DNA from: a virus
Length of the DNA stretch: 64,000 nt
Strand: one strand, 5' to 3'
Virus record (IMG/VR): IMGVR_UViG_3300027365_000009
Coordinates: 32,001-96,000 of that record
This document shows positions 3,261-53,783 of this stretch, piece by piece. The position numbers and the translations under genes are program-made. Below the pieces are notes generated by a model that ran no database searches, was not told where the DNA came from, and was given only the letters and a program-made list of their open reading frames with translations. Positions within the stretch are counted from its first letter, which is position 1, and each line of letters opens with the position of its first letter.

Positions 3261-3276
3261 TTGACATCTACATTAT
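3261..3276 (+). promoter_or_regulatory. Putative early (virion RNAP) promoter TTGACATCTACATTAT
   Basis: Identical 16-mer at 15330 and near-identical copy at 40053; resembles the phiKZ early TATATTAC-type motif. Confidence 0.6.
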
Positions 3277-3728: not shown

Positions 3729-4478
3729 ATGTTTCATCCACATGTTTATTTAAATACACTATGCCAGTGGGCCGGGCATAAAGCCAAAGATACTGCATTG
3801 TTTCCGGATGGGCCATCGGCCAAAGAATCGCTCCATCACCATCGCAGTCTTCGGCTAATTAAGGCATTACTGATCAAACGTCCCATTCACCACCCGGTCG
3901 ATATTGGAGGACATTATCACAGCAAAATGTTACCGATTCTCCAAGAGTTACGGAATGGACGTGTGGTTTCTTTGCCTAAGCTTTGGACGTACCGGGAAGC
4001 CGAAGCGTGGTTAATGACCGAAGACCGATCTTATTTAGACACACCTGATCTGGTTACGGACATTCAGCTTGGTGGTGCTGGTGTTTCTCGTCACGCTATC
4101 CCTACCTTTGGGGTCAATGGTGCCAATACCTCACCGCGACACACTCGGGTACTGCAATACTTCTTTGATTACTTTGGGGTTCGACGTACTCTAGCGTTTT
4201 CTCAGCGCGGGATTCTAAAACGCCTAGTTCAAGAAGTGGCCGCTACACGCGAGACGGACCTTGATGGAATGTTTCAAACGGAGAATTTCCAACTGTCCAT
4301 CAATGTAATGGTGGTCAACTATCTACTGGCCTCCACACCGATGCTATATTCACCTGACATTTTGGTCGATATTGTGTTGGATGAATATTTTACCCCCCTA
4401 CCGCTAACACAGCGCGAAGTATTATTACAAGCCCTACACTCCACGACGCTAAGGAACTGTCATGACGTCGATGCTTGA
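3729..4478 (+). CDS. Hypothetical protein
   Basis: 249 aa, AAGGA RBS. Confidence 0.7.
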   Translation: MFHPHVYLNTLCQWAGHKAKDTALFPDGPSAKESLHHHRSLRLIKALLIKRPIHHPVDIGGHYHSKMLPILQELRNGRVVSLPKLWTYREAEAWLMTEDRSYLDTPDLVTDIQLGGAGVSRHAIPTFGVNGANTSPRHTRVLQYFFDYFGVRRTLAFSQRGILKRLVQEVAATRETDLDGMFQTENFQLSINVMVVNYLLASTPMLYSPDILVDIVLDEYFTPLPLTQREVLLQALHSTTLRNCHDVDA

Positions 4479-10345: not shown

Positions 10346-10873
10346 ATGGTCCGCTTACTGGTGGTACCTGAGGCCATCATGACCATGCTCATTCGAGAGG
10401 GGATACCCTACTCGATCCTCAAAGATGTTGAGTCGATGAGTGGGGCATTGTCCGTACATGATATGGCCGAAATCCATATGGCTCAAAAGCAGTTCCCTTT
10501 TGAGTTTGATCAATCCCTTGAAATTCAATTCGCCCGATCGCCGCTGGTGGAGTTAGCGGAATCGTCGGAGAGTCGTACACTCTATGAACGACTTAATGAG
10601 CGTATTGAGACATTAACACTCCGCGAAAGCGCCGAGCGTGAGTCGTTTACCCCTGTCTATACGCTATATCCTGTAGACGAGACACTTTGGGTCGCAGTGC
10701 TGCAGAGGCAGGACTCACGGGAAGGCGATCCACATCGCGAATTACTCTCGTCCAATCACGCGTTCTTTGACGCGTTAATGGCGCAAACCTTACACCTTCA
10801 TTCGTTCGAACGAGTGTGTAGCACTAACCTCTTCACCTATTATCTGAAAGCTCTTCCCGCACAAGCTGCGTGA
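10346..10873 (+). CDS. Conserved protein upstream of the capsid gene (gp119-like)
   Basis: GGAG RBS; synteny. Confidence 0.6.
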   Translation: MVRLLVVPEAIMTMLIREGIPYSILKDVESMSGALSVHDMAEIHMAQKQFPFEFDQSLEIQFARSPLVELAESSESRTLYERLNERIETLTLRESAERESFTPVYTLYPVDETLWVAVLQRQDSREGDPHRELLSSNHAFFDALMAQTLHLHSFERVCSTNLFTYYLKALPAQAA

Positions 10874-10939
10874 GAGTGTCGTGATGATATGTCGAAGTGT
10901 GTCTCCCTGTAACTTCCTACGCGTAAGGAAATCAACACC

Positions 10940-13210
10940 ATGAGTAACCTCAAGAAGCTGTTTGCTGCTCGTCACGACGCGATGAGCAAAGACTTCCAGA
11001 TCGGCGAGTTCGTCGCCTCCCTGGAGTCTCACTCCGATACCGTGGGCAGCCCCCTGGCTGGCGGTAAGGAACTGGTCGGTCGTATCTCCACCGAAGCGTT
11101 CGGTGATATCGGCACCGAAGAAGCGGCCTCCTGTCAGGAGCTGTACGCTTCCATGCACGAGATGCTCGAGCGTGAAGGCTTCGAGTCTTTCAATGCCAAG
11201 CGTGGCGCCGACGCCCAGCGTGTGGGTGAGAACCAGGTCCTGTCCGCGACCCTGGCTGCCATCGCCGGTAACGACGAAGTTCGCTACAAGCGCTCCCTGC
11301 AGGGCATGCGTAGCGTCCCGCAGTCCAACAACCCGAACGTCATCGCCATCTCCCCGATGATCGACGGCCCGCACGGTCAGATGCCCGTTCTCTCCGAGAA
11401 CACCGGTCTGGAGAACTACAACGAGAAGTCCCAGCGTGACTTCCGTGTGATCTCTGTGGCCTACAACCTGGCCGCTGCTCGTCAGGACGCCTTTGGCGAA
11501 GCCCTGTATCCCACCGTGGTGGTCAACCCCACCGAAGGCGGTGTGACCCAGAACCTGACCTACGCTGCTGTCCTGAAAGACGTGTTCCACGAAGTCACCG
11601 GTGCGCTGTTCGACACCCGTGAAGTGAACATGGTCGAAGCCTTCCGTGACCCGTCCGTCCTGGAAGATGCCAGCACCAAGCTGGTGCCCGTGGTTGACGA
11701 CGCCGACAAGAACGCTCGTGTGTTCGTTGATCCCGCCGTTATCGCACCGCAGGACATCGAGCTCGAGAAAGGCGGTACCGTCAAGACCGCTCCGCTGAAG
11801 ATCGGTGAGAAGTTCGACCTTATCGGTGTGTCCAACCGTCAGCAACTGATCGCTGGCAACCTGCTGGACGTATCCGACACCATCGATCCGGCCATGCGCC
11901 TGAAGCACCTGTACGTGCGTCTGGGTGGCACCACTCCGAAAGTGGTTCGCTTCACCGTTGAGCGTATGCCCACCGCGGTGTTCCAGCCCAGCCTGACCAA
12001 CGACACCCGTCTGGCGCAGCTGAACTTCACCACCGAAGACCTGGTCGTGTCCGCCTCCACCAAGGCCATCGATGGTTCCACCAACGCGGCTATCGACGAG
12101 ATCGTCAACCGCAGCTGGACCATGCGGCTGTCCGTGGGCGTTTCCGGTTCCGTCTCCCTGTCCAAGGGTGATGCCTGGATCAACGCTACCCCGGTCGTGA
12201 TCGAAGACATCTTCGACGACGCCGGTCAGAAGCTGGACAAGTCCGCTGGCGATGCCAAGACCGTGGCCGATGCCTTCGGTGACATGACCGTTCTCGGTTA
12301 CGACCTGGATGCACGCTTCACCAACTCCAACCGTCGTGAGCGTGGCCAGCTGGTGCAGACTCGTACTCTGCAGTTCCGCTACCCGATCCCGATGCACAGC
12401 CCGATCACCCTGCCGATGTCCACCATGGACGAGTCCGGCCCGGGCGACGTGGTCAAGACCCTGACCGTGGCCACCAACATCCGCAACAGCAACAACGCGG
12501 TGACCCGTCTGCTGAACTACCTGGCTCAGCTGCGCGAAGTGGTGCGTTCTGGTTACGACCGTCCGAAATTCGGTGCTGTGGAAGGTGCCCTGTCCGCCAT
12601 GATCCGTCCGACCTACCGGTCTGGCACCCTGGATCTCGAGCAGGCCATCGACACCGTGCGCTCCAAGGATCGTTGGGAAGACGTCTGCGAGACCATCCTC
12701 AACACCATCAAGAGCCTGCTGTTCCCGGCCTACCGTGACTCCAACATCGAGGCGGCCTTCCAGACCGTCACCGGTAATGCTGATGAGCGTCCCAAGTTCA
12801 TCATCGCCACCGATAAGGAGATCGCTCACTACCTGATGCGTGTCGGCGACGACCGTACTCTGGGTTCCTACCTGAAGTACGACATCGTCAGCACCAACAA
12901 CGAGCGCTTCGACGGTAAGATCGTGATCGTGCCGACCCGTGAGAACCCGGTTGAGAACGACATCCTCAACTTCGGTCAGTTCTACTACGTGCCGACCATC
13001 ATCGCGGACCTGCCGATCAGCCGTAACGGTCAGATCTCTCGTGAGATTGCTGCCGTGCCGTTCAACCTGCACGTCAACAACATCCCGTTCGCTATCGAGA
13101 TCGACGTTGTGGGTCTGGACAAGGTGATGGGTTCTTCTCAGTACAACAGCCTCCCGGGCTTCCAGACTGAGCAAGTAGAAATCACCGACACCACCACTAC
13201 TTCTCCCTAA
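10940..13210 (+). CDS. Major capsid protein (phiKZ gp120-like)
   Basis: 756 aa; AYNLAAARQDAFGEALYPT, RTLQFRYPIP and GLENY cleavage site; strongly biased codons; synteny. Confidence 0.9.
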   Translation: MSNLKKLFAARHDAMSKDFQIGEFVASLESHSDTVGSPLAGGKELVGRISTEAFGDIGTEEAASCQELYASMHEMLEREGFESFNAKRGADAQRVGENQVLSATLAAIAGNDEVRYKRSLQGMRSVPQSNNPNVIAISPMIDGPHGQMPVLSENTGLENYNEKSQRDFRVISVAYNLAAARQDAFGEALYPTVVVNPTEGGVTQNLTYAAVLKDVFHEVTGALFDTREVNMVEAFRDPSVLEDASTKLVPVVDDADKNARVFVDPAVIAPQDIELEKGGTVKTAPLKIGEKFDLIGVSNRQQLIAGNLLDVSDTIDPAMRLKHLYVRLGGTTPKVVRFTVERMPTAVFQPSLTNDTRLAQLNFTTEDLVVSASTKAIDGSTNAAIDEIVNRSWTMRLSVGVSGSVSLSKGDAWINATPVVIEDIFDDAGQKLDKSAGDAKTVADAFGDMTVLGYDLDARFTNSNRRERGQLVQTRTLQFRYPIPMHSPITLPMSTMDESGPGDVVKTLTVATNIRNSNNAVTRLLNYLAQLREVVRSGYDRPKFGAVEGALSAMIRPTYRSGTLDLEQAIDTVRSKDRWEDVCETILNTIKSLLFPAYRDSNIEAAFQTVTGNADERPKFIIATDKEIAHYLMRVGDDRTLGSYLKYDIVSTNNERFDGKIVIVPTRENPVENDILNFGQFYYVPTIIADLPISRNGQISREIAAVPFNLHVNNIPFAIEIDVVGLDKVMGSSQYNSLPGFQTEQVEITDTTTTSP

Positions 13211-13688: not shown

Positions 13689-14102
13689 ATGTTACGTTTA
13701 ATGAAACAACTCTTTGCCCACCCTTCGGTTGTTGATCCTCTGTATGAACGACTCACAGGGAAAGAAGCCGACTATTTAACCGACGACGATAGGACCCAGG
13801 GACTCATTGGGGTGATGCGCACCTATGAGCCCTTTAAGCTCATTCAGCGCTTCTTAGCACTCGTAGTGATCCTTACCTACGTGGGAGTTTGGATACTGAG
13901 CGTTGGCTTGTTCGCCTGGGCAGGCATTGCGTCACTGGCAGGTCACGACACCACCATTTTGGTTAGTATCGCAGATCGGATCACCACCCTCAATCGAGAA
14001 CTGTTAGAGTGGCCCGCCCTGTTGGTCCTCTCTCTGTACTTTGGTGGGGGTGTGGCTGAGGGTATCTTGGAACGCTGGAAAACACGCCGTCCCAGTAAGT
14101 GA
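13689..14102 (+). CDS. Two-TM membrane protein (holin-like candidate)
   Basis: Two hydrophobic segments, LYFGGG, basic C-terminus. Confidence 0.5.
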   Translation: MLRLMKQLFAHPSVVDPLYERLTGKEADYLTDDDRTQGLIGVMRTYEPFKLIQRFLALVVILTYVGVWILSVGLFAWAGIASLAGHDTTILVSIADRITTLNRELLEWPALLVLSLYFGGGVAEGILERWKTRRPSK

Positions 14103-14142
14103 AACTAAAAATACTCGGAGCCTCTATGTAATGAGGGAAACT

Positions 14143-14442
14143 GCCCCGGTGGTGGAATGGTAGACACAGGAGACTTTGGTAACTGAGCCTCCATGGGGAA
14201 ACCTGTGGTTGCACACACTCTCAAATTCAGGGAAACCTTCCAGTTCGGCTGATGGCAATCCTGAGCGAAGCCTCGACAGAGGAACGTGCAGAGACTAGAC
14301 GGGAGTGGGCTACGTCCAGTAATGGATATGCTTGAGGGATAGTCCAGACCCCAAACGCATTCAGGTGCGGTAGTGAAAGCTATAGTGGGTAAGAAAATCT
14401 CCCGACCGTATGGTCGTGCCGATTCGAGTTCGGCTCGGGGCA
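14143..14442 (+). tRNA. trnL: tRNA-Leu(UAA), intron-containing; exons 14143-14176 and 14394-14442
   Basis: Acceptor GCCCCGG/TCGGGGC+A, D-arm GGTGGAATGGTAGACAC, anticodon stem GGAGA/TCTCC with loop CTT|AAAA, long variable arm CGACC-GTAT-GGTCG, T-arm GCCGA-TTCGAGT-TCGGC; CCA not encoded. Confidence 0.93.
14177..14393 (+). mobile_element. Group I intron (IC3, trnL-UAA type), 217 nt, no ORF
   Basis: P AAATTCAGGGAAACC, Q GGCAATCCTGAGC, R GTGCAGAGACTAGACGGGAG, S GAGGGATAGTCC; U before the 5' splice site and a terminal G. Confidence 0.92.
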
Positions 14443-14465
14443 CCCTCCCGATTTCAAAGAACCCA

Positions 14466-15224
14466 GGAAGCTTGAAGGTGGATCACTAGGGATAGTCCGT
14501 CCAACTAAGAACGAGCGGATGGCGTAGGTGTGGAACACGCTTCGGGGACAGCCCCACACAATGCGATCGAAACCTTCACTTTCCCATCCTCAAGATTGTC
14601 GGTTGTCTTGAGGATTACGCATAAACCGACTAGTTATCGGTAAGCCGCATGCCAGGTGCTGAAAAAAAAAAGCACCCTCAACAACGGTGTGGGGTAAAAG
14701 ATACACTCCCGCCATTCCGATAGCGAAAGGGAGAGGTCAGGTATGCTGGTCCGATACATACCGACCTAGGAAGCTGAGACTGGACAAGTCGCGGGGCGTC
14801 TTCCTTTAACGTGGGAAGTTATTGGGCGACATAGGGCGGTGAGTAGGCTGCTGTTGGGTGAATCACCCGATGTCAGTACGAAAGCATCCCATCTCGCGGC
14901 GGGCCTAATCAACTCCGGATGTTACTTAAGTAACGCGGAGTGATAGTGGTACCACGTCGTGTGGGCCACAGATCCTGTGTTCCAGCACAGTTGTTGATGA
15001 ACATGCGGTTGACTGGAGAACCGCATACAAGGCACTAGAACGGTGAGTTGGGAGCCTGACCTAATGCACCTGGGTAACTGGGTAGCGCGATAATGCACCG
15101 TTTAGGAGAGCGTTCTCCCTTAGAGGCAGGTACTGCATTGGGAGATTGTCCGGAAGAAGGATTGACCGGGAAACCGGAGATCGATGGGGTGAGGTAACTC
15201 ACGCCCTACAGCCGGACATTATCC
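14466..15224 (+). ncRNA. Candidate large structured non-coding RNA (about 760 nt; possibly a 120 nt plus a 640 nt unit)
   Basis: No ORF of 60 aa or more; more than 15 helices found by eye, GNRA loops on the + strand, pseudoknots, long-range pairings; bounded by tRNA and terminator. Confidence 0.7.
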
Positions 15225-15256
15225 GCATAATACCCTCCCTACGGGGAGGGGTTATG
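15225..15256 (+). terminator. Terminator ending the tRNA/ncRNA unit
   Basis: GCATAA-TACCCTCCCT-ACG-GGGAGGGG-TTATGT. Confidence 0.7.
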
Positions 15257-15329
15257 TTGCCACCATAACAAAAACACTACCCACATAACGGGTAGGGACT
15301 ATGCCGTCACTTAGGTAAGTCCATTCATT

Positions 15330-15345
15330 TTGACATCTACATTAT
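15330..15345 (+). promoter_or_regulatory. Putative early promoter TTGACATCTACATTAT
   Basis: Exact copy of the motif at 3261. Confidence 0.6.
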
Positions 15346-15385
15346 CTTCGTGACCGTACCGAATGTACTGACATGGAGATTGACG

Positions 15386-16048
15386 ATGTCTTACCGTAAA
15401 TTGGGGCTGGAGGCCTATTACCTCCCGACACTTAAGTCGTACCGCCCGACACCGACGCAGCACAGCATCACACTGCGTGAAGATGACCTGCTGGATGAGG
15501 TGTTTGAGTGCCTCGATGACCTCCCTATGTGGGTCGCTACCCAATGGCTGATGCAATTCCGCAATGGTGCCCGCACCTTGGTGGCAGAGAAGCCCCAAGA
15601 GACTCCCCAACCGGAGGAGGAAATTTCCGCCGACGAAGAGCCCATCCCCCGTCTCGACGATGAAACTGATGAGCCCACTCCCGATGTGGACCACTATACC
15701 TTTCGTATCCAATGTGCCATGTCGATGGAGTCAGCCACTCAGCTGCGCAATACCATCCACGACCTTCGTCCCACTGAGGACCCACCGAATGAAAGATCTT
15801 ACCAAAAGGGAGATCCCCTCCAAAAATTTACCGGGCGGGCAGGGGAAATCCACCACCTCTGTCCGCCCATCGACACCTATCGTCAAGTCGTCCATCGCGA
15901 AACGGCCCAAGCACGAGACCTTGTTGGGAAAACGTCGCCACGGTCGCAAGCGGTACGGAAGGACGTTCCGCCCCCTTCCGTAGTTCCTAAAGCGTTGGAC
16001 TTGACACTCCTGGATGTCCGTATCGAGGTTAACCCACCCAAGGATTAA
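15386..16048 (+). CDS. Hypothetical Pro/Glu-rich protein
   Basis: GGAG RBS before MSYRK. Confidence 0.55.
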   Translation: MSYRKLGLEAYYLPTLKSYRPTPTQHSITLREDDLLDEVFECLDDLPMWVATQWLMQFRNGARTLVAEKPQETPQPEEEISADEEPIPRLDDETDEPTPDVDHYTFRIQCAMSMESATQLRNTIHDLRPTEDPPNERSYQKGDPLQKFTGRAGEIHHLCPPIDTYRQVVHRETAQARDLVGKTSPRSQAVRKDVPPPSVVPKALDLTLLDVRIEVNPPKD

Positions 16049-30768: not shown

Positions 30769-32928
30769 TTACACGACCACCACACGAAAGCGGGTGCCTT
30801 CCCCATCAATCAAACCAACCTTTTCAATCCGCACACGCCCATCTGGTTCCAATGTGTAGTTCTGAAGCGTAGTGGGCTGCTGTACAGACGGTACCGCATG
30901 GTTGTATTCCACAAAGAAAGGAATATTCATGGTCAGTACGTTCGTATTTCCAAACGGTTCCTTATAGAAAATGTTGAAATACGATGTGGTGTTAAAGCCA
31001 TCATGGTAGATCACCGAGATGTTCTTCAACATGCAGGTGGACGGGACATTGTCAATCTCTAACGTATTCCCGCCACTTTGGGTAATGGTGATCTGGGACG
31101 AGTCAGTTTCTGACCCAAAGATCACCAGGTTAACAAAACATTCAACGCCGTTATGGGTGAATGTGTACTCACGGGCATGAGGAACCCCACTGCCGGCAGT
31201 GCCGCCTGAAGTACCCCCTCCAGGAATATCGACAGTTACCTCACCTGCGCTTTGAGTGGTGGTGACACCCGCTCCGGTGAAATTAAGGTGTGTAGCCGCG
31301 GCGGTGAGCTCAGTTCCTTCATCACTAACCGCAACGGATTGACCAGGTTCGCCTTGCGGGCCCATGGGGCCTTCGGGACCCTGAGGGCCTTCGGGGCCGA
31401 TGGGACCAACCTCCCCCTGAGGACCTTGGGGACCCACAAGTGAAGTCAACCACTCCGTCTCCGTCCCCACGAAGCCGTTTGTTACCGCCACATCATAAGC
31501 ACTGTCGCCCTCTAATGAGACGAGCCATTCGCTTTCGGTACCCACATACCCGTTATTGACGGCGATTTCATAGGCAGATTCAGCACTGGTGACGCCTGCA
31601 TCCAACCAATTCATTCCATCGAAATAGTAGAGCTCGTCGGTACCTACCAGATAGACGGTTCCCTGTGTTGCGTCGGTTGGGAGCTCTCCGAACGTTGCTA
31701 CTTGACCGTCAATCTGTAACCCGTGGCCAGCGGGACCTTGTGGGCCCTCGGGACCCTGAGGGCCTTCAGGACCGGTAGGGCCTTGCGGGCCCATAGGACC
31801 TTCGTCCCCAGCAGGTCCGACAGGACCCTGTTCACCCTGGATGCCCTGCGGACCTACCAATGAGGATAACCATTCGGTTTGGGTGCCCATGAACCCATCA
31901 TTTAAGGCAACCTGATAGGCACTGTCGCCTTTCTCCCCCTTCAGGGTATCGAGCCACTCGGCTTCTGTCCCAGTAAAGCCCTGGGCAACCGCACTGTCGT
32001 AGGCAGAGTCTCCTTGAAGGGTATCCAAGAACTCTTGTTCCGTACCTGTGAATCCCTGCGCTACGGCTAATTCATAAATGCCCTGACCATCTTGTCCATG
32101 GAGGCTGTTCAGCCAGTCATTTAATGTGCCGGTATACCCCTGCTCTACCGCATGGTCATACGCACTGGGTCCGGGTTCACCTTTCAGTGACTCCAGATAT
32201 TCCTGCTCAGTCCCGGTAAAGCCCTGCTCTTGAGCAAGCGCATATGCCGATTTACCCTCCAGTGATGCCAGGTAGGTGGCGAGATCGCCCGTGAAGCCCT
32301 CCTGAACGGCGAGATCGTAGGAAGAGGGGCCAGGGTCCCCCTGAGGGCCCGGCTGGCCCTCAGGGCCTTGTATGCCCTGTATACCGGCATCGCCTTGGGG
32401 ACCCTCTGGCCCAATGGGACCCTCCGGGCCTTGAGGACCCTGGAGACCCATTTCGCCTTGAGGACCTTGGGGGCCCTCCGGGCCTGTGGGTCCCTGGGGT
32501 CCGGGAGGACCCTGAATACCGCCTGCGTTTAACCAGCTCTCTCCTATCCAGACATGGAGTTCACCGTCGATCAAATACGCATCGCTTTGTGTTGCATCGG
32601 TGGGCAACTCCGCGGTTGAAAGTAACTCCCCTTTCAGCACCACCACTGCTGCCGGATCGCCTTCGGGTCCTTGCGGTCCTACGGGCCCTGCAGGGCCTTC
32701 TGGCCCCACCAGACTACTAAGCCATTCCGCTTCTGTTCCGGTAAAACCCTGTTCAATTGCCAGGTCATAGGCAGACTTACCGTCGGTACCCACCATGTCT
32801 TTCAAGCGGTAACGGCGGTTTTGCCAGGGTTCGAAGGTGTCACTACGTTCAATGACCTCAATAAAGACATCGCGTCCTTGGATGTCGACTAACTCACTTA
32901 GCTGGGAAATCTTTCTCGGTCCCGCCAT
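30769..32928 (-). CDS. Collagen-like repeat fibre protein
   Basis: GXY runs and 9 G.SAY..A...GF.GT..EWL repeats. Confidence 0.8.
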
Positions 32929-40052: not shown

Positions 40053-40068
40053 TTGACATCTATATCAT
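40053..40068 (+). promoter_or_regulatory. Putative early promoter TTGACATCTATATCAT
   Basis: Hybrid of the two promoter variants. Confidence 0.55.
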
Positions 40069-41988: not shown

Positions 41989-41998
41989 CGGCAGACGA

Positions 41999-42039
41999 CC
42001 CTCCCTACGGGGAGGGCGTTTATCTCGTCTTTTTTTTTT
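41999..42039 (+). terminator. Terminator
   Basis: CCCTCCCT-ACG-GGGAGGG plus T-run. Confidence 0.75.
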
Positions 42040-42078: not shown

Positions 42079-43059
42079 ATGTCACGTATTGCCAATCCTG
42101 TTTTTAACGGCTCTCCCTTAGATGACCTTCAAGCTGTTGATGTCTACAATGAAGTTGCTGATAGTGTCCGTAATAGCTTCACCACACAGTTTTCTGCCTT
42201 TGGTCAATCCCTCCAAGATAGCCTCGGACAACTGACCGGCGGTCTTGGAAACCTCCGTGGTGACTTAAAAGGGGGACTCGCCGATACCCGAGAAGCCACC
42301 CAGCGTATCCGCGATGCGCTACGAGGTGCTAAGGGCGATCTAGATAAGTTACGCGATAATTTGAAAACTAATATCATCGCATCCACCGGCATCGACGTTG
42401 AGGGCCTAAAAGAACTCAAGGTGACGGTTGAGGGGGAAATTAAACGCTTTAAAACAGCAGACCTGGGAAGTGCTAAAGGCGTCATGTCCCTTGCTCGTGA
42501 CCTCACCGGCAGTGACCTATTTGACGTCGTGGATTTTGGTGCTGAAGTGGGACTTTTCCGTGGGGTGCTGGAAGAAATCTCGGCGTGGGGAGTACCAGAG
42601 CTCATTGATGAGGTCTTAGGTAATATTGATGACCCTGCCATGCGCCGCCGGGTAGTCCAGGAAAGTACCGGTGTCCTGAGCACCAATGGGGATATTGATA
42701 GCATTGAAGCTATCCTCAATCAGGTAGGTGCGGCTCCCTTAACGGCGGGTCGCCCTGACTTCCCCAAGCAGGTCTTACAACGTTATAAGTTCAAGAAGGG
42801 GACCACACCAGCGGATTACCCCGCACGGTTAACCCAACTGACGGGGGTCATGAATCGCCTTCAGTTTGATTGGCTCTGGACGCAACGAGGTGGGGAGGCA
42901 GTATGGAACTTGAGTTTGATCCAACATGCCAGTGACGACGCCCGTACGTTGTTTCTGTCCACTGAAGAGTACCGCACACCAATGTTAATCGCGGGACACT
43001 ATACGTCAGTGCCCGTGACTACATTAATGCGTGAGACCTATCCAGGTATTGCAGTGTGA
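42079..43059 (+). CDS. Virion structural protein (gp174-like position)
   Basis: 326 aa; convergent with the protease gene. Confidence 0.55.
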   Translation: MSRIANPVFNGSPLDDLQAVDVYNEVADSVRNSFTTQFSAFGQSLQDSLGQLTGGLGNLRGDLKGGLADTREATQRIRDALRGAKGDLDKLRDNLKTNIIASTGIDVEGLKELKVTVEGEIKRFKTADLGSAKGVMSLARDLTGSDLFDVVDFGAEVGLFRGVLEEISAWGVPELIDEVLGNIDDPAMRRRVVQESTGVLSTNGDIDSIEAILNQVGAAPLTAGRPDFPKQVLQRYKFKKGTTPADYPARLTQLTGVMNRLQFDWLWTQRGGEAVWNLSLIQHASDDARTLFLSTEEYRTPMLIAGHYTSVPVTTLMRETYPGIAV

Positions 43060-46634: not shown

Positions 46635-47012
46635 CTACTGCTTTCATATGGCATCGTTACTACCATACCGTCCCGTCGTTGTATATCCAACGATGGACTG
46701 CTCCAGGCTTTCCCTGGACGTAAAGACTATATCTTCTCCTTCAGCATGACCTGGTCAGGAGGCTCCCATTTCGAGGTCACTTGACCCCTACACCGTGGTA
46801 AACGGTTAGTCGTTGAACGTTCCCCGTGGGGTCCTTTAGGACCCGGTAGGGGCTTCGCTGCTGATTGCCCAATCCTTCTACTTGTCAAGCCGTCAACACC
46901 TGCTTTCGCGGTGCTTGTGGCAAGAAGGCTCTAAGGGGTTCCCAGCAATTAGAGAGCATTCACTTAACCCTTTCGGATTAAGCGGACTGTGTTACTGCAC
47001 TCGGCAGTCACA
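46635..47012 (-). mobile_element. Group I intron, 378 nt, no ORF
   Basis: P AATTGCTGGGAA, Q AATCAGCAGC, R GTTCAACGACTA, S AAGATATAGTC; P1 GAUUGUG/CACAGUC with U-G at the splice site; terminal G. Confidence 0.9.
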
Positions 47013-47933
47013 ATCACCAACCCCCGCAGGGATGTCGTGGTCAATGTACACCTGAATGGCCAGGGTATCCGGATCAAGCGCATTACCTTCCACACGGAAA
47101 CTGGTATCGACTTCCCCGGTAAAGGGAGGTTGACCCAATTGTTTCGCACGCTTCTTGCGTTGCTTGTCCGACCATCCCGCCAGTTCTTGGAGGGATTCTG
47201 AGAGGTCCTCAAATTCCCCGTGGTAGAAACACTCCACACGACTGACCGTACCGACCACCTTCGCTCGGGGTGTCATCGCTGACAGACGCCGTAACGTATC
47301 GAGTGCGGCGTCGTCAAATAACGGATTCTCGGCAGTCTCCGGATCTTCAATCGTACATAAGATTGTCTCGAGGTCAACGTGATCACCCTCTTTAACGAGA
47401 CCTGAGACACTTTGGTCGAACTTCACCTGAATAGTTCGTACCTCCGTGGTCTGGGTGGTCATCTTTTTGGCCATGGCCTCAGAGATCACCGAGCCATCTT
47501 CCAGCGTGTCAATGTTGTCGATCAATGCAGTACGACAAAGGGCTCCCGGCTTTAACGTCACCTGACCAGGATTGAACACATCGGGGGTGAAGTACTTTCG
47601 GTTATAGGCAATGACATCGCCTTGGTTAACCTTATCCCCTTTCTTGAAGTCAGTGACGACCTCGTGCGGGTAAGTTACCCCGGCCGCTTTACCGTAGCGC
47701 TTCCCCAACTCGACCTTCTTGACACTTCCATCTGTATACGTCACGGTAATGGCGGTCTTGGTAACATCAGTGACCTTACCATCGGCCTCCGCCGTGGCCG
47801 CAAACAGATCCGTCATTCGGTGCGGAATGACCTGTTCATAGCCTGTCCGGAGTGGAATCGGCTCATACCCATCAGCATACACACTCTGTTGATTCTGGAT
47901 AGCGACAAAATTTATTCTTTTTGCATCGTCATG
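47013..47933 (-). CDS. Virion RNAP beta subunit, exon 2
   Basis: HDDAKRINF..Q, PLRTGYE, EDGSVIS, GVGD. Confidence 0.9.
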
Positions 47934-49994
47934 CAACTATGTTCAGTTACACCGCTACGTGTAACCCGCGATCCGATTGCTGTGAGGCAACCGAACGCTG
48001 CTCTAGGTCTCCCTAGAAGTTCAGACCATATCTTCTTCCCTTTTAAGGAAGCCTCCCATTTCGGAATCGCTTGATTCCTACTCCCCTGCCGGGGATGGTC
48101 GTTGAACGTTCCCCGTAGGCGCTCTAGGAGCGCCCGTAGGGGCTTCGCTGCTAAAGGGGGTCTTAGACCCCACGGTTGTCCATTGCTGCTCTTGGAGAGC
48201 TTTATCCGTCCCGTTGTTAGACCGTCGACGTCTGCTTTCGCGACGCCTGTGGTGGGACAGCTTTAGGAGTTCCCAGCAATTAGAGAGGTTATCATTCTGA
48301 AATTTCTTTCAGAAGGGACCATGTCGAGTTCATTCCCAATCTTCTTTTGAAGACAGTTTACGAACCTGCGTACCTTTACTATGCACTTCCTTACAGCTCT
48401 GACGCAACCAACTGAACATGGTAGATTTACCCACCCCTATCGCCGTGGCTGCTTCAGTTATACTTCCATAACAGGACACCACTCCTGTAGTAACATCTCT
48501 AACTTCGACGGGTTCTTTATTATTAGGCGCTTCGAGAATTTCTTCTTCGGAAACGTCGCGCCATGGAGACGCATCACTCTTTTTCTTTATTAAAAACCGA
48601 CAATCCCATAACGGCTGTCCGGCAGCTGCAATACGTCGAGTCATTTGTGGTTTAGAAATACCAAGGGCGTGTGCGGCGTCTTTCTGCCTCTCGTATTCCT
48701 TTACTTCGCCACTTACAACGTCTTTAACAAGAACCTTATTGCTGCGACCATAGAGTTGAAGTTCTCGTTCGGGATCGTCTACTTTTCTCCACGGCGTTGG
48801 GTCGTTCTTAAATTTCATTAAAACACCAGGTGGTATGAGGGGCTGATTTTTTCTCTTTAGCCAATAAACCACCGTATTACCCGATACGCCAAATGCTTCA
48901 CCACACTTGTGCATACTCTCATAGGTGGTTATTTCGCCTGTATACACATTCTTAACATCGACCCGACGTTCCCACTTTTCAAAAAGAGGTTCTGTGGCTA
49001 AATCCACATCACGCCACGGGGTTAAATCCGATTTGAATTTAACTTGTATATTACCGACGAAGACGGGCTGGTTAGGGCGTTTAAGATAATCATTAATGAC
49101 CCAAATATCCACCCCTAACTCTTTAGCGCATTGAAGTTTTGAATTATATTCCCTTACGATATTTTCATCCAAATACCGCACCAGAACAGGTTGGGGGGCA
49201 TTAGTAGTATTCTCTCTAATTTTACCTCTATCGCGCGTTGTATTCCACGCATGGATATGATTTTCACTCACTGTTGTCCATTCGAGGTTATCCAACCCGT
49301 CGTTGCCTGGAATACCATCAATATGGTTAACGTGTAATTGTTTATAGTTATTGGGGTAATTCGAATACGCCAACATCATTGCGCGATGCCGACCTAGGTT
49401 TGTCCTTCGATTGTCACTATCGCGTTTTATTTGATAGATAACGTAACCACTATCCATGACTGAATAGGGTGCAACTTCCCCACTCAGTACATGTATCACC
49501 ACACCTTCCCGATTTATTGCATATTGGGTATAATCGGGAATATAAGCGTAGCCTGGCCGAAGGAATGGCTCAAGTCCATTCGGTATTTTAAAATGTAAAT
49601 TATTAGGGTGGTGATTGGTGAGATCACCATCGTCGAAGCCCACCTCAATGAGATGCCAGAATTCTACTGGTATCCATATTGAGTTAAAAGTGAATGCGAT
49701 AAGTCTCGCCACTTTATGGGGTTTGATGTTACCTAGCCAACTGACTTTAGTCCAACGCAAGCCATCTCGGTCAGGGTATGTGTTAATAACCCGTTCCTTC
49801 TTACCTGTGACTTCGCCAAGTCGACTAACAAACAATGTTGCGGTGCTGTAAGGTACTGGCAGTAAGGCATTATCGTCGTAAAACATAGGGCATCCGTTGG
49901 TTGACTGAGATATGCTCATAAAGTTACTTAGGTGAGTGAAAACACACCGAAACTAAATTTCATACTCGTCCAACGGATGGTAACTCAAACGTTA
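47934..49994 (-). mobile_element. Group I intron, 2061 nt, with homing endonuclease gene in L1
   Basis: Core (AATTGCTGGGAA, GTTCAACGACCA, AAGATATGGTC) lies 3' of the ORF; guide CATG-GTCC at 48323-48316 pairs with both exons. Confidence 0.9.
48330..49919 (-). CDS. Intron-encoded HNH homing endonuclease with NUMOD1-like repeats
   Basis: HR...HVNHIDGIPGNDGLDNLEW; four V.V.D..TG....Y.S...A.ALGV repeats; AT-richer than the flanks. Confidence 0.88.
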   Translation of the reverse strand: MSISQSTNGCPMFYDDNALLPVPYSTATLFVSRLGEVTGKKERVINTYPDRDGLRWTKVSWLGNIKPHKVARLIAFTFNSIWIPVEFWHLIEVGFDDGDLTNHHPNNLHFKIPNGLEPFLRPGYAYIPDYTQYAINREGVVIHVLSGEVAPYSVMDSGYVIYQIKRDSDNRRTNLGRHRAMMLAYSNYPNNYKQLHVNHIDGIPGNDGLDNLEWTTVSENHIHAWNTTRDRGKIRENTTNAPQPVLVRYLDENIVREYNSKLQCAKELGVDIWVINDYLKRPNQPVFVGNIQVKFKSDLTPWRDVDLATEPLFEKWERRVDVKNVYTGEITTYESMHKCGEAFGVSGNTVVYWLKRKNQPLIPPGVLMKFKNDPTPWRKVDDPERELQLYGRSNKVLVKDVVSGEVKEYERQKDAAHALGISKPQMTRRIAAAGQPLWDCRFLIKKKSDASPWRDVSEEEILEAPNNKEPVEVRDVTTGVVSCYGSITEAATAIGVGKSTMFSWLRQSCKEVHSKGTQVRKLSSKEDWE

Positions 49995-53333: not shown

Positions 53334-53783
53334 CGTTATGTCCACTTGAGGCGCTACCCTCAAGCCGGTGTGCTAAGACACCCGCCCACCGTCACCGGTG
53401 GGGCCAGACCATATCTCCACCCGCCGACGATGACGTCGGGTAGGGTGCCTCCCGTTTCCCCGCCGCTTGGCAGGTACTCTACTCGCTTCTCCCCGTGGGG
53501 TGCTTTCGATGGTCGTTGAACTCATCCCTTAGTGTATCAGCACCTTAGAGACTTCGCTGCGTCGGTTGTGTCTACCATTGACGTTTTTACCATGCCCACC
53601 ACTTCCATTACTGGGGTGGGTATTACACTCAGTTTCCTGGTGTAAGTGGTAGTCAATGACGTAACGACAGTTTCCCGCAATTAGAGAGGTTTTACTAAAG
53701 GTGCTTTCACACCTTGGGACTCTGATCAAATAGCATATTTTTCAATGTCATTTAGATGAGAAAAAATCTACACTATTTTACTA
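53334..53783 (-). mobile_element. Group I intron, 450 nt, no ORF, inside the DFDGD motif
   Basis: P AATTGCGGGAAA, R GTTCAACGACCA, S GAGATATGGTC; guide TCA-GAGTCC pairs with exon GGACTT and TGA; terminal G. Confidence 0.9.

Follow-up and report, generated by a model that had tools for sequence, protein, structure and literature searches.

A 64,000-nucleotide stretch of an uncultured virus genome (the window, that is, the whole stretch of DNA analyzed here; positions 32001–96000 of the 149,876-bp IMG/VR virus record IMGVR_UViG_3300027365_000009, estimated to be ~51% complete) carries, on the + strand directly after an intron-bearing tRNA-Leu gene, a region (14445–15255) that encodes a structured non-coding RNA in its long form; this RNA is specific to phages and belongs to no catalogued family. 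An initial annotation of this DNA, made from the letters alone, had proposed an undescribed structured RNA at this place, on this strand and in a phiKZ-like jumbo phage, and that proposal is supported by the analysis reported here. It is highly probable that this is a real, trans-acting RNA of a new family; most likely, we infer, it functions as an accessory RNA that is transcribed late, and we assign this interpretation as a whole a probability of about 0.6. The phage was correctly called phiKZ-like because its major capsid protein (MCP; encoded at 10940–13210) matches PF25620, the PhiKZ-type MCP, with an E-value of 3.7e-222, and because the window also encodes a divergent DnaB.

Evidence for a conserved RNA fold

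The region had been described as free of open reading frames (ORFs), and indeed, no ORF longer than 59 aa overlaps positions 14445–15260 on either strand, in any frame. Loci of related phages were fetched through the MCP; one of these, denoted L002 (MCP 88% identical), contains a segment (11073–11805) that aligns to window positions 14445–15100 with ~70% identity and lies directly after an uninterrupted tRNA-Leu(UAA) gene. The substitutions between the two sequences are distributed over the codon positions as 60/62/72 in the RNA region, that is, without periodicity, compared with 204/70/43 in the MCP gene, and only one of the 16 indels in the RNA region is a multiple of three. The conservation begins right after the tRNA, at about position 14445, rather than 24 nt further downstream, where the start of the element had originally been placed.

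Compared with dinucleotide shuffles, the + strand of the region folds well (−312.6 kcal/mol, z −4.9), but so does the − strand (−284.3 kcal/mol, z −4.5), so that folding of the single sequence is, on its own, weak evidence; when the minimum free energy structures of one sequence were tried on the other, the outcome was too noisy to tell the strands apart. The RNAalifold consensus of the window and L002 reaches −174.7 kcal/mol on the + strand and includes 160 pairs, 30 of these compensatory, along with 50 G-U cells that favor the + strand, in agreement with the strand assignment made initially from G-U pairs; the reverse strand of the same alignment yields −114.1 kcal/mol. Column-shuffled alignments (n = 30) gave −72.1 ± 5.3 kcal/mol and 12.2 ± 3.0 compensatory pairs, with a maximum of 19, and when the 3′ partners were slid by 1–3 columns, the number of compensatory pairs fell to 0–4. 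Together, the column-shuffle, reverse-strand, and slid-partner controls indicate a real, conserved RNA fold on the + strand.

Another line of evidence comes from a covariance model, R1 (251 positions), that was built from short forms of the RNA only (described below). This model detects L002 with 49.4 bits (E 4.7e-15) and the window, at 14992–15111, with 39.1 bits (E 1.6e-11), and across 36 loci, produced no matches beyond these two. The test is independent because the structure of the long form was derived from an alignment that was not used for R1.

The same results bear on the possibility that the region is a non-functional spacer, its apparent structure being a product of chance or base composition. 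The fact that both strands fold better than shuffles, which weakens the single-sequence z-score, and the very narrow distribution of the element are compatible with a spacer, but the consensus energy and the number of compensatory pairs both clearly exceed the values for shuffled columns, a model built from other sequences recognizes the long forms, and the loops described in the next section are either invariant or co-vary with each other. We regard a spacer as extremely improbable.

The core and its lineage-specific elaboration

The portion of the RNA shared by all members is small, a core of ~130 nt (14975–15101) that consists of two hairpins with complementary loops and a three-way junction, and is present in five lineages, namely, the window phage, L002 and three lineages with short forms, represented by L003, L004, and L009. 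The first hairpin, S2 (14975–14990), is formed by CUGUG (14975–79) and CACAG (14986–90) around the loop UUCCAG (14980–85); it is found in all five lineages, and its stem covaries, being CUGCU/GGCAG in L003. In the second hairpin, S3 (15003–15026), AUGCGGUU (15003–10) pairs with AACCGCAU (15019–26) around the loop GACUGGAG (15011–18); here, the stem is replaced by GCGACU/AGUCGU in L002 and by GGUGG/CCACC in the short forms. In the window and L002, S3 loop bases 15013–15018 are complementary to the S2 loop (UUCCAG × CUGGAG), and the corresponding loops are UCCAAU × AUUGGA in L003 and its relative L051, UCCAGU × ACUGGA in L004, and UUCCAAC × GUUGGAG in L009. Complementarity is retained in every lineage, and there is covariation at two positions (G-C/A-U and U-A/C-G), which is good evidence that the S2 and S3 loops would form a kissing-loop contact of 6–7 bp.

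S3 is followed by a conserved AAGGC (15029–33), within which AGGC (15030–15033) is the candidate strand of a pseudoknot with GCCU (15054–15057) in a loop of the junction; one base is lost on each side in L009 (AGC with GCU), and GGGC in L004 yields a U.G pair, so the comparison provides modest evidence for this putative interaction. The three-way junction (15040–15101) is closed by ACGGUG (15040–45) and CACCGU (15096–15101), a helix whose sequence differs from lineage to lineage but which pairs in all five (UUGGUG/CACCAA, GUCUCGCG/CGCGAGAC, GCCCCGUG/CACGGGGC, and GUCUCACG/CGUGAGGC in the other four). One junction hairpin (GUUGGG/CCUAAU, 15047–52/15060–65) presents an invariant 7-nt loop, AGCCUGA (15053–59), which contains the GCCU strand of the candidate pseudoknot, and the third arm (15066–73/15078–86) is capped by the GUAA tetraloop (15074–77) that was recognized in the initial annotation and is a GNRA loop (GUAA or GCAA) in all five lineages. 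The combination of compensatory changes and invariant loops across five lineages points to selection on the fold. A kissing-loop contact, an invariant loop of 7 nt, and a possible pseudoknot would be typical of RNAs that assemble or have a specific binding partner.

This architecture differs from the one originally envisaged, a single RNA of 760 nt held together by long-range helices. In the first of these proposed helices, CTAGTTA/TGACTGG, the 3′ strand is the S3 loop, which pairs with the UUCCAG loop instead; in the second, AGCCGCATG/CATGCGGTT, the 3′ strand is part of the S3 stem and competes with the covarying AUGCGGUU/AACCGCAU pairing, and the 5′ strand AGCCGCATG is not conserved in L002; and in the third, TCAACAAC/GTTGTTGA, the 5′ strand TCAACAAC is deleted in L002. 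A supposed GGGA tetraloop at 14489 is really the 5′ strand of a helix (GGG 14489–91 with CCC 14553–55). Several local hairpins fared better: AGGUC-GGUAUG/CAUACC-GACCU, CUCCG/CGGAG, CUGUG/CACAG, and ACGGUG/CACCGU are all kept in relatives, mostly with compensatory changes.

Upstream of the core, ~500 nt are common to the window and L002 only, and include two domains and two further hairpins that were found in no other record searched beyond those of these two phages. Domain A (14445–14787), as delineated by RNAalifold from the two sequences, has the outer helices CCAG (14463–66)/CUGG (14780–83) and AGC (14469–71)/GCU (14773–75), with compensatory pairs in the helices 14495–14502/14544–49 (two), 14586–96/14605–15 (three), 14633–43/14715–24 (six), and 14734–48/14755–67 (one). 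Domain B (14788–14900) is closed by GUCGCGGG (14788–95) and CUCGCGGC (14893–14900) and contains two inner helices, 14798–14810/14818–14830 and 14847–60/14866–77, with three compensatory pairs each; the former replaces the AGGAAG/CTTCCT pairing proposed initially, which is not kept in L002. The two hairpins (within 14912–14969) are 14912–25/14930–41, with two compensatory pairs, and 14946–55/14961–69; the only difference within the RNA between the window and a 99.5% identical contig, L041, is G14965A, which converts a U.G pair of the latter hairpin into U-A. On the 3′ side of the core, a domain of ~125 nt (15102–15229) is predicted by single-sequence folding to comprise the hairpin GGAGAGCGUUCUCC and a UGUCCGG/CCGGACA helix around GAAA- and GUAA-capped stems. 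This domain is confined to the window phage and L041 and is absent from L002 and the short forms; L002 has instead a 55-nt hairpin inserted before the junction.

The short form, ~290 nt in length, can be aligned only to the 3′ portion of the long form and was identified in three lineages: L003 (with L051, L053, and L033), L004 (with L026, L031, L032, and L037), and L009 (with L039). It stands alone, without a tRNA, starting at a conserved TATnnTATG ~22 nt downstream of the Tad3 stop codon and ending in the same kind of hairpin (CCCCUCCC...GGGAGGGG) as the long form. Thus, natural size variants include the ~290-nt stand-alone form and tRNA-fused forms of ~730 and ~810 nt. Given that the core is small and that the flanking domains each occur in one or two lineages, the 0.8-kb size appears to be a lineage-specific elaboration of a smaller unit; the conserved entity is not the 760-nt whole but the ~130-nt core, or ~250 nt in the short form.

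Comparison with known structured RNAs

Rfam scans were run with gathering thresholds over the whole window and with a relaxed cut-off (E ≤ 10) on 13900–15500, 14445–15300, and the L009 short form. Even at E ≤ 10, neither 14445–15300 nor the L009 short form corresponds to any of the families in Rfam 15 (cmscan), and literature searches retrieved no description of this RNA. The scans yielded chance matches to mir-3478 (14.7 bits), Yar_3, and the rnk leader, which were dismissed.

The initial annotation assigned the region to the GOLLD/ROOL class of large phage RNAs or to a wholly new RNA, and the former option is not borne out. The resemblance is in the setting: like GOLLD and ROOL, this is a long, ORF-free, multi-domain, highly structured phage RNA adjoining a tRNA gene, here ~810 nt of a phiKZ-like phage immediately downstream of tRNA-Leu; the short forms, at ~290 nt, have no tRNA. 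However, GOLLD (RF02032, gathering score 150 bits) gives only a 7.1-bit match (E 1.56) in the whole phage record (G000:29580–29636), outside the window, and ROOL (RF03087, gathering score 99.1 bits) has no match in the record at E ≤ 10, although the 14 control genomes gave none either. There is, at the covariance-model level, no shared core; unlike in GOLLD and ROOL, the conserved part spans ~130–250 nt, the rest consisting of lineage-specific additions, and members of the family occur only in a few phiKZ-like phages, all of them uncultured. The odds that this RNA is a divergent member of the GOLLD/ROOL class appear minimal.

The earlier statement that the region lacks hallmarks of RNase P RNA, tmRNA, and group II introns agrees with the family-model searches: RNase P RNA and tmRNA were not matched (Rfam cmscan, ARAGORN), no group II family appeared in the cmscan of 14445–15300 at E ≤ 10, and RF01998 (group-II-D1D4-1) matched nothing in the phage record. 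The group I model RF00028 does not match 14445–15300 alone at E ≤ 10, and an extended group I alignment merely loops out 14442–14730, adding 1.7 bits. No riboswitch or T-box family matches either the long or the short form. Three further candidates were discarded: a sensitive blastn comparison of the RNA with the window revealed no variable repeat-like partner, as would be expected of the template repeat of a diversity-generating retroelement, and two motifs spotted by eye, GGUGGUACCAC, which resembles a T-box, and UGAUGA in the S2–S3 linker, which resembles a hammerhead motif, are not conserved in L002 and have no support in Rfam.

Phage T4 encodes two structured RNAs, RNA C and RNA D, that are co-transcribed with the phage tRNAs and presumably released by tRNA processing. 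By analogy, the RNA described here can be viewed as a structured RNA of a phage tRNA unit, with putative co-transcription with the tRNA, but it is much larger, has a short form without any tRNA, and shows no similarity to the T4 RNAs in sequence or at the model level.

The pRNA of phage phi29, which is essential for packaging, carries interlocking complementary loops, and the RNA described here is, likewise, a phage-encoded folded RNA with two mutually complementary, co-varying loops, located near structural genes and provided with its own phage promoter, a putative one in the present case. It differs in having a three-way junction with the invariant AGCCUGA loop and a candidate pseudoknot, in being dispensable among close relatives, and in giving no family match to phi29 pRNA at E ≤ 10 in the long or short form. 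By the logic of pRNA, the S2 and S3 loops, two co-varying complementary loops of 6–7 nt in one molecule, could pair between molecules, so that the RNA would be a multimerizing structural RNA that builds rings or cages for late capsid or packaging steps. Consistent with this, the gene is located shortly after that for MCP and is preceded by a late-type promoter motif, and GOLLD and ROOL are described in a preprint as building RNA-only multimers (bioRxiv 10.1101/2024.12.08.627333); the complementary loops could, in principle, support multimers of the present RNA in the same manner. Nevertheless, S2 and S3 are adjacent, with a linker of 13–17 nt, which makes a contact within one molecule sterically easy, Rfam searches retrieved neither pRNA nor ROOL nor GOLLD, and the RNA is missing in the MCP-closest relatives and in all 14 complete phiKZ-like genomes searched, making an essential role in assembly unlikely. 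A structural multimer is the main alternative to a trans-acting accessory RNA, but an unlikely one.

Locus, distribution and possible role

The tRNA-Leu(UAA) gene (14143–14442, +) consists of two exons (14143–14176, GCCCCGG...GGAGACUU, and 14394–14442, AAAAUCUCC...UCGGGGCA) separated by a 217-nt group I intron (14177–14393; RF00028 match with 51 bits at 14167–14366) that splits the gene directly 3′ of U34. ARAGORN missed the unspliced gene and identified the spliced sequence as tRNA-Leu(taa). The orthologous tRNA-Leu(UAA) genes of L002 (10987–11073) and L050 (~4031–4117) are uninterrupted, so that close relatives differ in whether they have the tRNA intron, as they do for the RNA (see below). 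Altogether, four group I introns were detected in the window with Rfam, the one in tRNA-Leu and three more (46703–47029, 48001–48348, and 53385–53754, all −; 59–67 bits) that interrupt large − strand genes. Just upstream of the intact tRNA-Leu gene, L002 encodes a 162-aa HNH endonuclease (10448–10980; phrog_14913, E 9e-18) that is preceded by a duplicated tRNA 5′ fragment (GCCCCGGTGGTGGAATTGGTAGACA) and looks like a free-standing homing endonuclease inserted at the tRNA. The gene for the divergent DnaB, upstream of that for MCP, is called as two pieces in some relatives (L049:4360–6293 and L054:2862–6231), with a NUMOD1-type ORF between the two pieces in L054, which suggests intron or intein-type insertions there.

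The most informative relative is L050 (MCP 87% identical), in which the same TATG motif, uninterrupted tRNA-Leu(UAA), hairpin, and downstream boxes are present but the RNA is absent, the tRNA-to-hairpin distance being only ~20 nt; close relatives thus either carry the RNA in this place, ahead of the terminator, or cleanly lack it. The RNA is also absent, according to R1, from L049 and L056 (MCP 85% and 88% identical, respectively). The element is, therefore, dispensable, given that the relatives closest by MCP lack it at the same locus. In all, R1 found one copy in each of five phage records and none in 19 others, including the 14 complete phiKZ-like genomes. Wider searches added no new members: a pattern scan of viral contigs for the core motif recovered known members only; of the 15 loci found in a metagenome scan, 4 were real, all of these duplicates of known lineages; a search with a 19-mer from domain A returned the contig of L002 and two coding coincidences; a 16-mer scan of genome contigs gave random matches only; and among GenBank phages, the matches were limited to the intron and, in Pseudomonas phage D6, a 39-mer resembling the terminator. 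A search for homologs of the downstream 232-aa protein retrieved only the protein itself. Among the records searched, the RNA family is rare and restricted to the phiKZ-like phages noted above.

Presence and absence at exactly the same site, in L050 versus the window, raises the possibility of a selfish or relic insertion, that is, an intron-derived or other mobile RNA, lodged after the 3′ end of the tRNA and ahead of the terminator, that propagates itself or decays. The abundance of group I introns in this phage, the HNH endonuclease gene and duplicated tRNA 5′ fragment adjoining the RNA locus in L002, and the different domain content among the lineages all are compatible with such an origin. 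The opposing evidence is that the searches for group I and group II signatures described above came back empty, that there is neither an ORF nor a clear target-site duplication, that each genome carries a single copy, always at the same locus, that the core is kept in five lineages by compensatory changes and invariant loops, and that the short forms have their own putative promoter. A mobile element or its remnant is, in our view, improbable.

Transcription of the RNA, judged by its flanking motifs, could begin upstream of the tRNA. The tRNA is preceded, at a distance of 15 nt, by a TATG motif (14125–14128, +) that may serve the non-virion RNA polymerase as a late promoter, with putative initiation at G14128. 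The motif is conserved in L002 and L050; the late promoters of phiKZ have a TATG consensus, with the G at +1 (PMC4666361). Helix P1, the first of the short forms, starts with the predicted +1 G of the TATG, and a similar ...TATGTCGA... is present ~50 nt upstream of the MCP gene. In all lineages, the RNA is followed by the 3′ hairpin CCCUCCC-uacg-GGGAGGG (15233–15250, +), which presumably terminates transcription or marks the 3′ end, and in L050, this hairpin follows the bare tRNA; the hairpin at which the region had been reported to end is, then, clearly present, and its role as a terminator is putative. Because TATG precedes the tRNA and the only terminator-like hairpin comes after the RNA, co-transcription with the tRNA, as already suggested in the initial annotation, is plausible. 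A second copy of the hairpin (CCCTCCCTACGGGGAGGG) occurs at 41991–42016, before a gene at 42079, and is followed by a T run; the genome uses the terminator sequence of the RNA locus more than once.

A promoter-like box, GACATCTACAT (15332–15342, +), upstream of the next gene (15350–16048) delimits the RNA unit. Exact copies of this box occur at 3263, 15332, and 40055, all upstream of + strand genes, and the box at the RNA locus is conserved in L002, L003, L004, L009, and L050. The recurrent form, (TT)GACATCTAYAT (3263–3273, 15332–15342, and 40055–40065; 8–70 nt upstream of + strand genes), is probably the promoter element of one temporal class distinct from TATG. Because the next gene has its own recurrent box, the RNA is not the leader of that gene.

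The locus has a syntenic order, with the MCP gene followed by variable cassettes, a fast-evolving gene for a protein of 212–250 aa that is present with or without the RNA, and a gene for a protein of ~400 aa. Upstream of the RNA is the tRNA, an HNH gene with the tRNA, or the Tad3 gene, and downstream is the 232-aa gene or a 155/162-aa gene. Tad3 (PF25185), a Thoeris inhibitor, is encoded directly upstream of the RNA in all three short-form lineages, and Acb3 (PF25187), a CBASS inhibitor, is encoded upstream in L002 and in L056; the Tad3 or Acb3 genes in these post-capsid cassettes of relatives are located at L003:8998–9618, L004:8401–9051, L009:8384–9031, L054:9627–10316, L002:9639–10412, and L056:3008–3712. 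Other cassettes include an Mtd_N protein (L049), a Big_2 protein, and the L002 HNH endonuclease with the duplicated tRNA fragment. This gene content marks the post-MCP region as a hot spot of counter-defense and accessory genes. No RNA was found beside 36 more distant Tad3 genes, so that the link with Tad3 reflects shared ancestry of the locus rather than independent association.

The constant position of the short forms directly 3′ of the Tad3 gene, the hairpin 20–25 nt beyond the RNA in these forms, and the complex, aptamer-like fold with an invariant loop could also be explained by a cis-acting element, either a riboswitch or attenuator of the downstream gene or a stabilizer in the 3′ untranslated region of the upstream gene (Tad3 or, in the window, the tRNA). 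Against this stand the variation of the flanking genes on both sides, the existence of the downstream gene for the 212–250-aa protein with or without the RNA and behind its own promoter box, the same hairpin after the bare tRNA in L050, the 125 extra nt between core and hairpin in the window phage, and the lack of a riboswitch or T-box family match. In addition, a pairing between GGGAG in the core and the 5′ arm of the terminator, noticed by eye, is not conserved, and the L009 arm cannot form it. Regulation in cis seems quite improbable.

The evidence is best accommodated by a trans-acting accessory RNA, for which the following course can be proposed. The non-virion phage RNA polymerase would transcribe the RNA late, from the TATG at 14125–14128, in one transcript with tRNA-Leu; ordinary tRNA 3′ processing would then release the RNA from the tRNA, and the hairpin at 15233–15250 would terminate and protect it. 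The short forms would be the same RNA with its own TATG start, with the first helix at the predicted +1. The folded RNA would act in trans, binding a protein or a small ligand via the invariant loop and the junction. Because the cassette region carries Tad3 and Acb3 in relatives, a tentative guess at the role is that of an accessory host-interaction or counter-defense RNA, which is possible but falls short of being probable. More specific, and doubtful, is the notion that the RNA would serve a nucleus-forming jumbo phage as an effector made of RNA only, either a self-assembling, kissing-loop-linked multimer resembling ROOL, GOLLD, or pRNA, or a decoy or sponge against a host immune protein or signal. 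If true, the latter role would parallel those of the protein inhibitors Tad3 and Acb3 in the same cassette region of relatives, and the tRNA-fused 0.8-kb form would be an elaborated version of the 250-nt core.

Several considerations weigh against this interpretation of the RNA. The covariation statistics are limited to five lineages in all and two for the long form, and the structure of the long form was derived from the same two sequences on which it is tested. The start, processing, and end of the RNA are all read from motifs, of which TATG is a 4-mer, frequent by nature, and the presumed terminator at 15233–15250 has a poor U tract. The contact between the S2 and S3 loops could join separate molecules rather than parts of one. 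Finally, nothing ties the RNA to any defense system or binding partner, and the association with Tad3 appears to be the shared synteny of one clade and hence is not independent.

Hardly any work has addressed the structured RNAs of nucleus-forming, phiKZ-like phages, and no catalogued family covers the RNA described here. Its natural variants are informative in that they include a stand-alone form, tRNA-fused forms, and a natural knock-out, L050, in which the locus persists minus the RNA. Should the RNA be merely a stable by-product of the tRNA transcript, it would show that phage tRNA units acquire and shed RNA cargo; its position among anti-defense genes raises the idea of an RNA-based counter-defense or host-interaction factor.

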